Below, piece after piece: positions 14,462-53,187 of a DNA stretch of 64,000 nucleotides. The notes under the pieces are model-generated. The model worked only from the letters and a program-made list of their open reading frames with translations, did not search any database and had not been told where the DNA came from. This DNA comes from Eubacteriales bacterium (GTDB taxonomy: Bacteria; Bacillota; Clostridia; Oscillospirales; CAG-272): contig JAZQWL010000010.1 in NCBI GenBank assembly GCA_045632305.1, forward strand, positions 67,399-131,398, read 5' to 3'. The number at the start of each line of letters is the position of its first letter. The first letter of the stretch is position 1. A program made the translations under genes and the position numbers.

Positions 14462-16009
14462 ATGGAAATGCCGGTAGTAGCATTTTTAGCTTCCTTGCTT
14501 GGCGCCGCGGTAGTATTCTTCTTCTTTGGATATCTTTCCAGAAAGAAGATCGGTGAGGCCAAGATCGGTTCTGCCGAGGCAGAAGCTAAAAAGATTGTAA
14601 CAGAAGCAAAGTCTGATGCGGAATCCGCTAAGAAGACCGCTCTCCTCGAGGCCAAGGAAGGCATCATGTCTCAGAGAAATGAATTTGAGCGTGAGATGAG
14701 ACAGAGACGCGCGGAAGTAAACAGACTTGAAGACAGAATTTCTAAAAAAGAAGAAACACTTGACAAGAAGACCGACGCACTCGAGAAGAAGAACGAGCAG
14801 CTCGACCGCAAGCTCAAGGAAAATGAGGTTGTAAAGGAGCAGATCGAAGGAGTTCTCTCCGAGCAGTTAAAGAAGCTCGAGCTTATTTCGGGAATTTCTG
14901 CCGAGGAGGCAAAAGACGAGCTTATCGAGAGAGTTGAGTCCGAGATGAAGCACGAGCTGGCTGAACGCCTTGACGCCCTTGAAACACAGTTCAAGGAGGA
15001 GGCAGACGAGAAGGCGAAGAACATTTTGTCTTTGGCTATTCAGAGATATGCATCCGATCACGTTTCCGAAGCAACTATTTCCTCTGTGGCATTGCCCAGT
15101 GAGGAAATGAAGGGTAGAATCATCGGACGTGAGGGTAGAAACATTCAGAAGATCGAAACGTTGACAGGCGTTGAGCTTATCATTGACGATACCCCTGAAA
15201 CTATTACATTGTCGGGATTTGATCCCGTAAGACGAGAGGTTGCGAGAATCGCCCTTGAGCGTCTTATTTCCGACGGTAGAATTCATCCTACGAGAATTGA
15301 GGAGATGGTTGAGAAGGCGCAGCGTGAGGTTGACGCATCCGTTAAGCAGGCGGGTGAGAGAGCTACATTTGAGGTTGGCATTCACGGTATTAACCCCGAG
15401 CTTGTAAGACTTCTCGGTCGTCTTAAGTACAGAACGAGCTACGGACAGAACGTGCTCAAGCACTCCATTGAGGTTGCATTCCTCGCCGGTATGATGGCTG
15501 AGGAGCTTGGCGTTGATGCGAATATCGCAAGACGCGCGGGTCTCCTCCACGATATCGGTAAAGCATTCCCGCACGACGTTGAGGGCTCTCACGTTGAGAT
15601 CGGCGTAAATGCGGCGAAGAAGTATAAGGAAAGCCGCGAGGTCGTTCATGCGATCGAAGCGCACCACAATGACGTTGAACCCAAGACCATTATCGCTATT
15701 CTTGTTCAGGCGGCTGACGCTATCAGCGCGGCAAGACCCGGCGCGAGACGCGAGGATATGGAAAACTACATCAAGCGTCTTGAAAAGCTCGAGGAGATCG
15801 CAAAGAGCTTTGACGGCGTAGATAAGGCGTTCGCTATTCAGGCAGGACGTGAAATTCGTGTTATGGTTAAGCCCGAGGAGGTTAACGATGACGCAATGAA
15901 GGTTGTCGCAAGAGAAATGGCGGCAAAGATCCAGTCTGAGATGAAGTATCCCGGTCAGATCAAGATCAATCTTATTCGTAAGAGTCGCGCTGTTGACTAC
16001 GCGAAGTAA
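14462..16009 (+). CDS. rny: Ribonuclease Y
   Basis: N-terminal TM helix, coiled-coil, KH domain ([12 protein letters not shown]) and HD domain (LLHDIGKA...HH). The ORF track starts at TTG 14408. ATG 14462 lies downstream of an AAAGGAGG RBS. Confidence 0.95.
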
Positions 16010-45661: not shown

Positions 45662-46082
45662 TCAGTAGACTGATAATTTTGGCGTAGAACAAGCGCCACA
45701 CGAATGAACTTATTTGAGTTTATTTGACTCAAAGTGAATACATTCAAGGTTGAAACCCGCAGACTAAGTCTGCGGGTTTCTTCGATTTTATGTGGCGCTT
45801 TAGGCGCGTGAGCTGCCTCTGCCGTACGCCTGTACGGCGACGAGCTTGCTCCCACGCCTTCTACATCCAAACTTATCAGTCTTGTTCTCGTAATTTTGGC
45901 ACAGACCATGTGCCACACCACATATTAATTAAAGTTTATTAAACTCAAAGTTAATATATTTAAAGTTGAAACCCACAGACCAAGTCTGTGGGTTTCTTCG
46001 TTTTCGTGTGGCACATTTTGTATCACATCCTTATCAGTCTTGTTCTCGTAATCTTGGCACAGACCATGTGTCAATATAAAAC
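45662..46082. repeat. Tandemly repeated non-coding modules (terminator hairpin plus ~45-bp conserved block)
   Basis: The hairpin module at 45752-45780 is repeated at 45968-45996. The block CTTATCAGTCTTGTTCTCGTAAT(T/C)TTGGCACAGACCATGTG occurs at 45872-45917 and 46029-46074, with a weaker third copy at 45661-45710. Confidence 0.8.
45749..45790 (+). terminator. Rho-independent terminator of the alpha operon (copy 1 of a duplicated module)
   Basis: GAAACCCGCAGAC-taa-GTCTGCGGGTTTC followed by TTCGATTTTA. Confidence 0.75.
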
Positions 46083-46461
46083 AGCCCGCCGAAAATGGGT
46101 CAGGTTCTTAGCGGAGAATTTGAGAACTCTACTAAGTGCGAGCATCGCATTTGTCCGGACAAATGCAAAGTGGGCTATGCCTAAACCCTTATAGAAACAG
46201 AAAGAGAGAACAAATCGGCTTCAATGCCGAAATGCTCGCTCCTTTTCTGTTGGTTTTCAGTTTAGAGTTATGAGGCTCGCATTGCTCGCCGTTATGAGCT
46301 TGCACAGCAAGCGTTATGATATGATTGCCTTTGCAATCTATAACTTGGCGAAGCCAATCATAACAATGCGTAAGCATTTCATAACTCATAACTTGCCCAA
46401 AAGGGCAATCATAGTTTAGCGTGAATACTCCGTTAAGAGTATCACGCTAAATCGGCGGGCT
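46083..46461 (-). repeat. ~380-bp element of GTTATGA/TCATAAC heptamers and mini-hairpins, bracketed by a 10-bp inverted repeat, immediately downstream of mgtE
   Basis: AGCCCGCCGA (46083-46092) pairs with TCGGCGGGCT (46452-46461). GTTATGA occurs 3 times (46267, 46291, 46313). (T/C)ATAAC occurs 4 times (46339, 46358, 46379, 46386). At least six short hairpins lie between them. Confidence 0.75.
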
Positions 46462-46467
46462 TTTCTT

Positions 46468-47979
46468 TTATAGATGCAACGCGCTGGATGCGATTGCAAA
46501 GTAGATAATCAAAGTGATCGAGTCAACGATGGTTGTAATGAAGGGCGATGCCATAACTGCGGGGTCAACCTTGAGCTTTTGCGCTACGATGGGGAGAAGC
46601 GTACCTATAAGCTTAGCAACGATTACTGCAAGACACGCGGTCACGCTTACAACAAAGGAAATAAGAAGATTTTCCTGAGTGAAAGCAAAGCCAAAGTCAA
46701 TCGCAATTGTTTTGATAAAGCATACTACTGCCAGACAAACGCCGCAGAGAATGGATACTCTGAATTCCTTGAAAAGAACGCGAATAATATTTTTCGGTTC
46801 AATTTCATCGAGTGAAAGCGCACGGATAATTGCAACCGAGGACTGGCTACCCGCATTACCGCCCGTACTCATGAGCATGGGAATGAAGGATGTCAGAATC
46901 ACGTAAGTTCCAAGCGCTGTCTCATAATGGGAAATGATCATACTTGTGAAAATTCCCGAGATCATGAGTATTACAAGCCACGGAATACGCTTTATCCACG
47001 TTTCAATTACACCCGTTTTTGTATACGGCTTATCGGTAGGAGTAATAGCTGCCATCATTTCGATGTCGGCGGTTGCTTCTTCTTCGATAACGTCGAGCGC
47101 GTCGTCGACGGTTACGATACCGACGAGTCGGTTTTCTTTATCAACGATGGGGAGGGCTAACAAGTCGTATTTCGAAATTGTCTGCGCTACGCTTTCTCTG
47201 TCGTCAAGCGTATGAGCGAAGATAACCTGTTCTTCCATTATATCGCGGATCTTGGTATCGGGCTTTGCAAAAAGAAGCTGCTTGAAGGAAACCGTACCAA
47301 TAAGCTCGCGGGAGCGGTCGGTAACGTATGCGGTATATACGGTTTCTTTTTCGATACCTGTTCTGCGAATATAGGCAATGGCCTCTTCGACTGTCATGCT
47401 GGCGCGGAGCTTAACAAACTCGGCGGTCATTACGCTCCCTGCGGAGTCATCGGGGTAGGCGAGAAGTCGGTTGATCTGAGTTCTTGTTTCTTTCGATGCG
47501 TTTTTCATGATTCTGTGAACCATGTTAGCAGGGAGCTCTTCGAGCATATCTACGGCGTCGTCAAGGAAGAGGTCTTCGATAATAAGTGAAATTTCCTTAT
47601 CTGTCAATACCTCTATGATTCTTTCCTGCATTTCGGAATCAAGCTCGGCAAATACGTCTGCGGAGATGTCTTTGCGGAGGAGCTTAAACACTGCGGGAAC
47701 CTTTTTAATATCAAGCTCGGAGAAGAAGTCGGCGATGTCGACAGGATTCATCTCGAGCGTTGCTCGTCTGAACTGGGAGTATTTACGGTTTTCAAGCATA
47801 GTCCCGAGATCTTCGAACATTTCATCGACGATGTCCTCGTAGGTTTCTGTGGGCTCTTCCTCCATTGCTTTCATTTCAGCTTCGATCTTCGCCTTATTGG
47901 CTTCGAGCTGATCCTCAAGCATTGTTTTGAGCTCTTCGTCATTGTTTATGAGGTTTTCATTTTCTTTGTATTCTGCCAT
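46468..47979 (-). CDS. mgtE: Magnesium transporter MgtE (with acidic N-terminal extension)
   Basis: 503 aa with an MgtE N-domain, tandem CBS domains, and a C-terminal TM domain with PMLMSTGGNAGSQS and DPAVMASPFITT. Confidence 0.93.
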   Translation of the reverse strand: MAEYKENENLINNDEELKTMLEDQLEANKAKIEAEMKAMEEEPTETYEDIVDEMFEDLGTMLENRKYSQFRRATLEMNPVDIADFFSELDIKKVPAVFKLLRKDISADVFAELDSEMQERIIEVLTDKEISLIIEDLFLDDAVDMLEELPANMVHRIMKNASKETRTQINRLLAYPDDSAGSVMTAEFVKLRASMTVEEAIAYIRRTGIEKETVYTAYVTDRSRELIGTVSFKQLLFAKPDTKIRDIMEEQVIFAHTLDDRESVAQTISKYDLLALPIVDKENRLVGIVTVDDALDVIEEEATADIEMMAAITPTDKPYTKTGVIETWIKRIPWLVILMISGIFTSMIISHYETALGTYVILTSFIPMLMSTGGNAGSQSSVAIIRALSLDEIEPKNIIRVLFKEFRVSILCGVCLAVVCFIKTIAIDFGFAFTQENLLISFVVSVTACLAVIVAKLIGTLLPIVAQKLKVDPAVMASPFITTIVDSITLIIYFAIASSALHL

Positions 47980-51398: not shown

Positions 51399-53030
<1,632 letters not shown>

Positions 53031-53130
53031 TCTGCGCGTAGCGCAATCAGTTATAAGTTATGAGATATGAGTTATGAGATGCTTCGCATCGCTGATAACG
53101 CTTGCGTAGCAAACTCTAAACATTTGGCGC
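53031..53130 (+). repeat. Short copy of the GTTATGA/mini-hairpin repeat family between the groEL stop and its terminator
   Basis: GCGC-gta-GCGC, GTTATAA, GTTATGA x2, GATGC-ttc-GCATC, GATAAC, TTGC-gta-GCAA, AACTCTAAAC. It is collinear with the minus-strand reading of 46260-46400. Confidence 0.7.
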
Positions 53131-53155
53131 TCCCCAAATATATAACTGTAAATTT

Positions 53156-53187
53156 AAAAACCTCTCGCATAAGCGAGAGGTTTTTTG
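53156..53187. terminator. Bidirectional terminator (groEL / tetR-family gene)
   Basis: CCTCTCGC-ataa-GCGAGAGG flanked by an A5 run and a T6 run. Confidence 0.8.

Follow-up and report, generated by a model that had tools for sequence, protein, structure and literature searches.

The insert downstream of mgtE

The 64,000-nt stretch analysed here (the window), taken from contig JAZQWL010000010.1 of a Eubacteriales bacterium, carries mgtE as a minus-strand open reading frame (ORF) at 46468-47979, whose product matches MgtE_N, CBS and MgtE in a Pfam profile search. Directly after its stop codon (46468-46470, minus strand) lies a 359-nt insert at 46093-46451, and this insert, its relatives in other genomes and its possible mode of movement are the subject of this report. 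It is framed by the arms AGCCCGCCGA (46083-46092) and TCGGCGGGCT (46452-46461), which are perfect complements 359 nt apart, with an A-run outside one and a T-run outside the other. With these runs, the outer arms span 46080-46092 and 46452-46469, the T-run overlapping the mgtE stop codon, and they look like the two halves of a bidirectional intrinsic terminator; mgtE would be the host gene whose terminator is occupied.

Read on the plus strand, the insert opens with the junction AAATGG (46093-46098), a spacer that separates the terminal repeat from the host stem and agrees with the family consensus (A)AATGG in a junction table of 56 copies. The 5' terminal inverted repeat (46099-46123) is degenerate, with GTCAGGTTCTTAGCGGAGAATTTGA showing two mismatches to the consensus GTGATGTTCTTAGCGGAGAATTTGA. 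It leads into a conserved 5' domain (46124-46195) of about 82% identity across all subfamilies, which contains the perfect 20-bp palindrome GCATTTGTCCGGACAAATGC (46147-46166, from the repeat search) and the hairpin GGGC-tat-GCC (46172-46188). A long purine/pyrimidine hairpin, AACAGAAAGAGAG...CTCCTTTTCTGTT (46196-46251), follows; several of its pairs show compensatory changes, and it encloses an inner hairpin, TCGGCttcaatGCCGA (46215-46230).

The next part, which we call the comb (46259-46413), is a dyad array of hairpins of the Gut-1 type discussed below. Its words are GTTATGA at 46267, 46291 and 46313, then CTATAAC at 46338 and TCATAAC at 46358, 46379 and 46386. Five mini-hairpins stand between them: GCTTGC-aca-GCAAGC (46298-46312), GATTGC-cttt-GCAATC (46323-46338), TTGGC-gaa-GCCAA (46345-46357), AATGC-gtaa-GCATT (46365-46378) and TTGCCC-aaaa-GGGCAA (46393-46408). 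The insert closes with the 29-nt 3' terminal hairpin GCGTGAATACTCCGTTAAGAGTATCACGC (46419-46447, with arms at 46415-46424 and 46442-46451), of which 97%-identical versions occur in many related genomes, and with the consensus junction TAAA (46448-46451, plus strand). The outer arm of this hairpin is the inverted 5' terminal repeat, and the two pair with each other in the consensus fold of the focal subfamily. No credible ORF is present in the insert according to the ORF list, which contains only frames of 45-68 aa there, the longest overlapping frame being 68 aa. A preliminary description of the locus, made from the letters alone, had noted the split terminator-like stem with its insert after the mgtE stop codon, the three GTTATGA words with four complementary heptamers, the mini-hairpins, the 20-bp palindrome, the 3' stem and the lack of a credible ORF, and direct reading together with a repeat search placed all of these where they had been reported.

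The in silico folding proposed in that description indicates that the region is structured far beyond expectation. The minimum free energy of the RNA is -162 kcal/mol for the minus strand and -154 kcal/mol for the plus strand. Dinucleotide shuffles give about -99.5 +/- 5.5, corresponding to z-scores of -11.2 and -10.9, respectively, and the outer host stem closes both minimum-energy structures. Compensatory changes were found at 11 of the 49 predicted pairs of the 5' domain and, for the GTTATGA class projected on the focal copy, at 15 of 108. An initial impression that G.T wobbles favour the plus strand as the strand of action was dropped after the count, since G.T (G.U) and A.C mismatches in 48 outer stems number 34 and 26, respectively; a hand tally of the pair table gave about 82 and 79 for G.U and A.C in the local hairpins. 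No promoter signal above chance was found in the elements. Because the orientation of the copies is random (see below) and the G.T and A.C counts are balanced, no single strand is marked as the functional one.

Copies of the element and the sites they occupy

The host assembly (1.6 Mb in 51 contigs, 93% complete) was searched with the focal element, which gave 14 BLAST matches, and a second query added a sister subfamily. In total, the host genome holds about 9-10 copies in two subfamilies: approximately six with a GTTATGA comb (C10, the focal copy; C15; C20; C26; C2+C28; C12) and approximately three with a TGAATTG/CAATTCA comb (C3, C46 and C19/C15-end), which have the 5' 130 nt and the 3' hairpin in common with the GTTATGA copies. 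One further copy, C44, is a mini-derivative. Several copies lie at contig ends, implying that the repeat breaks the assembly. When the copies are aligned, the conserved part ends at the same two points in each of them, and the sequence outside differs from copy to copy. Outside every aligned copy there is nevertheless a complementary pair, preceded by an A-run and followed by a T-run, so that each host-genome copy has a bracketing stem of its own, as the alignment and the junction table both indicate. The proposal that the insert belongs to a repeat family is borne out by these copies and by those in other gut Clostridia; it is not a single-copy sequence.

The exact 23-nt terminal repeat was found in at least 117 contig stretches of metagenome-assembled genomes (MAGs) of gut Clostridia, many of them from ruminant gut samples. 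The carriers are labelled Clostridia, Eubacteriales, Oscillospiraceae, Christensenellaceae, Candidatus Scatosoma and Ruminococcus. Within the order, an even sample of 151 genomes in 97 genera gives a patchy picture, with the repeat in 14 of the genomes and 12 of the genera (one hit for a reversed-pattern control); a carrier genome has 1-9 copies, the highest number being that of the host genome. Searches of viral contigs, plasmids and phages returned no matches to the element, and a phage or plasmid origin was set aside on this ground.

A common plan emerges from 56 complete copies, which were collected from the host genome, from related genomes and from MAGs found via the exact 23-nt end. The element is roughly 350 nt long and has imperfect terminal inverted repeats of about 27 bp, the 5' end GxGTGATGTTCTTAGCGGAGAAT matching the reverse complement of the 3' end GCGTGATGTCCTTAACGGACAAAT. 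From 5' to 3', the plan comprises the junction (A)AATGG, the terminal repeat GTGATGTTCTTAGCGGAGAA, a conserved domain with the hairpins GCATTTGNNNNNCAAATGC and GGGCTAAGCCC, the long hairpin CAGAAAGAG...CTCTTTTTCTG, the comb, the terminal hairpin GCGTGA-n-CCGTTAAGG-n-TCACGC, with an outer arm that again repeats the 5' end in inverted form, and the junction TAAA. The conserved, hairpin-rich 5' domain extends over about 170 nt. The comb consists of three to four direct copies of a 7-9-nt word followed by three to four copies of its complement, with a mini-hairpin between each.

The word is uniform inside one element and is always paired with its own complement; between elements it falls into discrete classes. 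We count 14 copies with GTTATGA, 10 with GTGAAGT, 8 with GTGATAT, 7 each with TGAAATC and TGAATTG, 3 with GCGATAT, 2 with TGATGTT and a single copy with TCGATAT. Identity in the 5' domain is about 82-83% both within and between word classes. The nearest neighbour by 5' domain nevertheless belongs to the same class in 39 of 52 cases, and the word classes are therefore mostly coherent lineages.

Deleted, truncated and cargo-carrying derivatives also exist, and many copies are truncated or internally deleted. In a 904-nt member (L142, JAFQOX010000014.1), the comb and the 5' terminal repeat are separated by a complete GNAT acetyltransferase gene in reverse orientation, and the element is still inside a split terminator stem, GAACCGACGG / CCGTCGGTTC. 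Elsewhere, a long terminator stem is capped by nothing but the 28-nt terminal hairpin GCGTGATACTCCGTTAAGAGTATCACGC (L061, G007:C11, about 14691-14718), which may be either a minimal element or what a deletion between directly oriented terminal repeats has left behind. The window itself has a decayed half-comb of the family at 53030-53140, between the groEL stop codon and an intact terminator (53156-53187), with GTTATAA/GTTATGA units and the hairpins GCGCGTAGCGC and GCTTGCGTAGCAA.

The insertion sites resemble one another in structure. A strong bracketing stem with A and T runs is present in 48 of the 56 complete copies, and for 49 of the 56 a gene ends within about 70 nt. Convergent genes flank 25 of these copies, a lone co-oriented upstream gene adjoins 11, and a lone convergent gene 13. 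Since the single-gene cases split into 11 co-oriented and 13 opposed, the orientation relative to the gene of the occupied terminator is random. No orientation bias was seen relative to the local majority gene strand, taken as a proxy for replication direction (18/12/13).

Comparison between species provides the state of several sites without the insert. In 30 genomes of the same genus, the mgtE 3' end almost always has a short simple terminator. The closest mgtE relative (86% aa identity) has the plain terminator AAAAAGCTCCGTC-ttttc-GACGGAGCTTTTTT with the same downstream synteny, and the terminator is followed by TTGACAC...GCGCCAAGATTAC, as is the outer arm in the window. At the site of copy C3, genome G014 reads AAAAAGACCGAC-aagc-GTCGGCCTTTTT and the host genome AGAAAAGACCGACA-[element]-TGTCGGTCTTTT, i.e. 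the same arms are split at the loop. For copy C46, simple terminators of 35-45 nt lie between the same two convergent genes in G053 and G014. The expectation that relatives lacking the insert would have plain terminators thus holds at the orthologous mgtE, C3 and C46 sites in this species-level comparison.

The same target can also hold different elements. Two loci (L064, G001:C142; L075, G015:C140) represent one orthologous terminator with arms CACCCCGAC.. / ..GTCGGGGTG that contains an element in both species. Their flanks are 84% identical, the words are GTGATAT in one and TGAAATC in the other, and only the 3' hairpin is common to the otherwise unrelated interiors, which could reflect a repeated hit on one hairpin or a replacement in place. 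Likewise, the orthologous terminator of an ABC-transporter gene is occupied by different word classes in the host genome and in L133. Plain orthologous terminators, together with one target holding different subfamilies, are what independent insertions into pre-existing hairpins would predict. As far as the species-level comparison of sequences goes, the outer stem appears to be the host's own terminator.

The comb, the Gut-1 motif and PF05635 genes

Gut-1 (RF01706) was described as a free-standing likely non-coding RNA of 77 nt, found only in human gut metagenomes (Weinberg et al. 2010, PMC2864571). The Rfam Gut-1 model has no hit in the focal copy (46060-46480, E<=10) or in the other host-genome copies, and permissive Rfam scans of the region gave nothing relevant, only chance matches to SNORD46 and AaHKsRNA22 and a Leu_leader match that corresponds to a neighbouring terminator. 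Half-combs of sister subfamilies whose word is similar to GUGAAAU, however, score 51.3 (L060), 50.9 (L069) and 50.7 bits (L075), just above the gathering score of 50, and the subfamilies with GTGATAT or TGAAATC words range from 36.5 to 51.3 bits; the dyad design of the comb places hits on either strand. The question whether a known non-coding RNA model covers the element, raised in the preliminary description, thus receives a divided answer: no model matches the focal copy at E<=10, whereas Gut-1 matches arrays of sister subfamilies.

Each half of the comb shares its layout with Gut-1, in which copies of a heptamer (GUGAAAU in the model) stand between three short hairpins. The host-genome copies differ in that they use the words GTTATGA and TGAATTG, with which the model does not score, and the array here is half of a dyad comb in a 350-nt mobile element rather than a free-standing 77-nt unit. 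We regard the GTTATGA/TCATAAC comb as a variant of the orphan Gut-1 motif.

Similar combs lie in front of most genes of the PF05635 family ("23S rRNA intervening-sequence protein"), to which the Avd proteins of diversity-generating retroelements (DGRs) are assigned. Both PF05635 genes of the host genome are directly preceded by a TCATAAC/GTTATGA comb of about 170 nt whose hairpins are nearly identical to those of the focal comb. In three other genomes, reading of the upstream sequences revealed combs before about two thirds of 12 PF05635 genes, often with a sigma-70-like promoter between comb and gene, and the same reading of further PF05635 genes gave combs in about 30 of 40. Among 39 genomes of the genus, 32 have PF05635 genes. 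Seven of the element's eight word classes also occur upstream of PF05635 genes, GCGATAT being the one not seen. The host PF05635 protein matches PDB 2RLD, an uncharacterised Bacteroides protein whose entry is listed with five chains.

The two host genes belong to paralogous cassettes (L076, G000:C22:42435-42960; L077, G000:C13:1215-1727), each composed of a hairpin CTTGAGC-n-GCTCAAG, the TCATAAC/GTTATGA comb and the PF05635 gene, and inserted at the stop codons of unrelated genes. The C22 cassette replaces the stop codon of a GMP-synthase-like gene, the frame of which is longer by 13 codons. In a further locus (L080, G026:C6:16117-18093), a PF05635 gene has a comb of direct repeats only (GCTAAAT units), followed by the start of an identical comb, which suggests tandem cassette copies.

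Physical linkage between the element and PF05635 genes was considered and discarded: only one such gene occurs in 503 kb of flanks around 80 elements. Full elements also exist in genomes where no PF05635 gene is detectable, for example G011 (96% complete). The element and PF05635 genes are linked through common sequence modules rather than through their positions.

Apart from the element family, the window shows a module duplicated in tandem at 45662-46082, downstream of rplQ, with near-identical terminators at 45752-45780 and 45968-45996 and a 44-nt repeat, CTTATCAGTCTTGTTCTCGTAAT(T/C)TTGGCACAGACCATGTG, at 45872 and 46030. This unit and a GC-rich stretch, GGCGTGGGAGCAAGCTCGTCGCCGTACAGGCGTACGGCAGAGGCAGCTCACGCGCC (mgtE-sense strand), are kept in related species. 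The module may be an unannotated RNA or regulatory element adjoining the L17 gene.

Origin and movement of the element

We consider it likely that 46093-46451 is an old, slightly degenerate copy of a non-autonomous element of about 350 nt that resembles a miniature inverted-repeat transposable element (MITE) and sits in the loop of the mgtE terminator. The focal copy looks old and is possibly immobile, because its 5' terminal repeat has two substitutions in an otherwise near-invariant sequence. On comparative grounds, the family as a whole is shown to be mobile, splitting different terminator-like hairpins at gene ends without orientation preference and with both arms kept. A non-autonomous mobile insert of no named family in a terminator loop was among the options offered in the preliminary description, and it agrees with the copy number, the individual stems and the plain orthologous terminators. 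A large structured RNA in the 3' untranslated region (UTR), another of those options, is possible as a consequence of the insertion, but leaves the copy number, the variable flanks and the random orientation unexplained.

The element is small and non-coding, occurs in multiple copies at unrelated loci and has terminal inverted repeats, as MITEs do, and filled and empty states are demonstrated at species level for three sites, one of them with the same stem arms. With the bacterial MITEs (Correia/CREE of Neisseria; RUP, BOX and SPRITE of streptococci; ERIC) it shares the intergenic position, the strong folding, the truncated and deleted derivatives and the co-transcription with neighbours. It differs from them in that neither a partner insertion sequence (IS) nor a clear target duplication was found, in that its target is a structure, the loop of a terminator hairpin, rather than a short sequence, and in that conservation and a modular organisation reach far beyond the ends into the interior. 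Full-text searches on the motif and on terminator-hairpin MITEs found no published description of the family, only that of the Gut-1 motif.

Several observations weigh against this interpretation. An exact same-species empty allele of the mgtE site was not obtained: a gapped empty-site pattern went unmatched in metagenome contigs, and exact-protein look-ups found no identical MgtE or identical versions of two other flanking proteins on record. A strain with a 99%-identical MgtE diverges immediately after the stop codon; its ENA contigs (L050/L051) have DUF559 and HSDR_N_2 (restriction-related) genes in place of the element and rplQ, and this junction looks like a strain-specific island or rearrangement. 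Direct repeats of 4-6 nt at the junctions are in weak excess (permutation test, p about 0.003-0.015) and in no fixed register, and they are largely self-complementary words (ACGT, TATA, AATT), which are to be expected where a stem runs up to the junction. No consistent target-site duplication emerges from them, and we do not accept them as reliable evidence of one. Recent activity in the host genome has left no apparent sign, as the copies there are about 80-84% identical to one another and the nearest relative of the focal copy, at 88.7% identity, is in a sheep-colon MAG and not in its own genome. Furthermore, the 82% identity of the 5' domain and the covarying hairpins amount to more internal constraint than is usual for MITEs, which suggests that the folded nucleic acid may have a function. 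Lastly, genes for RVT_1, DDE_Tnp_1, rve and DDE_Tnp_1_6 (PF13751) were not found in the host genome, and neither an autonomous copy nor a transposase with matching ends was found there or in 113 loci (80 + 33), although MAGs often lack IS copies and absence of the cognate IS is therefore not proven. An IS3-like gene near a solo hairpin (L268) was examined as the mobiliser and rejected, as it has its own ends, unrelated to the element.

The closest behaviour among known elements is that of IS1272/TnSha1 (IS1182 family) of staphylococci, which inserts in hairpins, mostly terminators, in both orientations and repeatedly in the same target, without sequence specificity or target duplication, and which deletes part of the hairpin by a cut in the stem (Furi et al. 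2016, PMC4923244). The present family shares the hairpin targets, the lack of specificity, both orientations and the repeat hits, and no reliable target duplication was seen in it either. It differs in that both arms survive in 48 of the 56 copies, with the insert at the loop, and in that IS1272 encodes a transposase, whereas the element has no ORF and its host genome no DDE_Tnp_1_6 gene. In its insertion geometry the family matches IS1397 and ISKpn1, which likewise occupy loops of intergenic palindromes at gene ends. These members of the IS3 family are autonomous, insert into the loops of repetitive extragenic palindromic (REP) sequences and bacterial interspersed mosaic elements, with one palindrome family as target, and generate duplications of 3-4 bp; in contrast, the host genome here has no rve gene. 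Intervening sequences (IVS) of bacterial 23S rRNA genes that carry a PF05635 gene are located in rRNA helices, from which RNase III excises them. They resemble the element in being placed at a helix tip, in ends that extend the helix and in the four-helix-bundle protein family concerned. The focal element differs in that it has no gene, is not linked to PF05635 genes and sits in terminators.

For the MITE-like element, we suppose that a trans-acting enzyme would recognise extruded or single-stranded tips of hairpins or cruciforms, not a sequence, and would move the element as DNA. Since the insert is predicted to fold on itself on either strand, the host arms would rejoin in the transcript just before the U-run, whichever gene is transcribed, and the occupied terminator should still work in both directions. 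It is in this proposal that the insertions become tolerable, because a self-folding insert would keep the terminator working both ways. Selection on the host side may then retain only inserts that fold compactly on both strands. Such selection would account for the dyad design, the internal covariation, the strand symmetry, the strong folding of both strands and the frequent location between convergent genes, but only in part for the word code and the conservation of the 5' domain. The comb would be homologous to the combs before genes for PF05635 (Avd-like four-helix-bundle) proteins, and it probably derives from, or shares a ligand with, the comb-PF05635 cassettes. A bolder extension, which we regard as speculative and quite improbable, takes the repeated 7-9-nt words as an address code by which each comb docks its cognate pentameric PF05635 protein multivalently. 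The comb-PF05635 cassettes, the gene-less elements and the 23S IVS would then be one undescribed selfish class that seeks nucleic-acid hairpin tips, with the PF05635 protein, and no classical transposase, as the sole dedicated factor.

Of the competing explanations, the one to be taken most seriously, unlikely as it seems to us, is that the element is a functional structured nucleic acid first and mobile only secondarily. It would be either an RNA of the Gut-1 class or a DNA/RNA platform whose words bind a pentameric PF05635 protein, and copies would persist through their use by the host or the protein. The 5' domain, about 82% identical even between subfamilies and with covarying hairpins, argues for this explanation, as do words that vary from subfamily to subfamily and yet stay the same throughout an element, each with its complement always present. 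The same word classes in the combs upstream of PF05635 genes, the five chains listed for 2RLD and the publication of Gut-1 as a likely non-coding RNA (PMC2864571) point in the same direction. On the other hand, the orientation is random relative to the transcribed gene, neither the 34 vs 26 mismatches of the outer stems nor the approximately 82 vs 79 of the local hairpins reveal a strand preference, and no promoter signal rises above chance. Linkage to PF05635 is absent over the 503 kb of flanks, with full elements in genomes such as G011 that have no detectable PF05635 gene, and many copies are truncated or internally deleted.

Movement through RNA is far less probable. In such a scheme, modelled on DGRs, a reverse transcriptase and an Avd-like helper would copy the folded transcript, and the product would be integrated at DNA hairpins; however, the 93%-complete host genome has no RVT_1 gene, Rfam reports no group II intron or other ribozyme, the ends are classical terminal inverted repeats, and insertion occurs in both orientations without strand asymmetry. 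DGR homing and class C group II introns do use terminator-like stem-loops as target signals, and this, along with the assignment of Avd proteins to PF05635 and the extreme structure of the element, is what gives the idea some appeal. The analogy with group II introns drawn in the preliminary description finds no support, given the lack of an Rfam intron hit and of a reverse transcriptase gene, and the insert, unlike a class C intron, lies inside the loop, not after the stem. Least probable of all is a REP/REPIN-like or IS200/IS605-derived palindrome-associated element moved as single-stranded DNA by a Y1 (HUH) transposase. The search for a Y1-transposase gene did locate a single Y1_Tnp-type gene (HUH, IS200-like, RAYT-type) in the host genome (C15:22700-23197, L078; 29.3 bits against a cut-off of 23), and the element is hairpin-rich and located at gene ends, like REPs. 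The gene, however, contains and is associated with a different palindrome, GGGCGGATTCCATATCCGCCC, which occurs five times in the genome. The ends of the element are inverted repeats rather than same-strand subterminal hairpins, the length of 350 nt is far above the size of a REP/REPIN unit, and there is no orientation bias relative to the gene strand used as a proxy for replication. By these features it falls outside both the palindrome-associated transposable elements of IS200/IS605 and the REP/RAYT systems, and the IS200/IS605-type origin put forward earlier is not sustained. A 25-nt repeat that bears a palindrome, GTAGGGGCGGATTCCATATCCGCCC, occurs twice, in inverted copies, inside the reading frame of the Y1 gene and three more times elsewhere in the genome.

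If the MITE-like interpretation is correct, the family provides a clear example of target choice by DNA or RNA shape in a transposable element, the targets being the loops of terminator hairpins whose arms are both left intact, and it raises the idea that the fold of the insert itself keeps a bidirectional terminator working. For annotation, the elements break MAG assemblies, lengthen 3' UTRs by about 350 nt and could be mistaken for riboswitches or small RNA genes. The orphan Gut-1 motif, unexplained since 2010, gains a genomic context as half of a dyad comb that occurs both in a mobile element and before PF05635 genes, and this context suggests a possible ligand for the widespread PF05635 family, whose function has been obscure.

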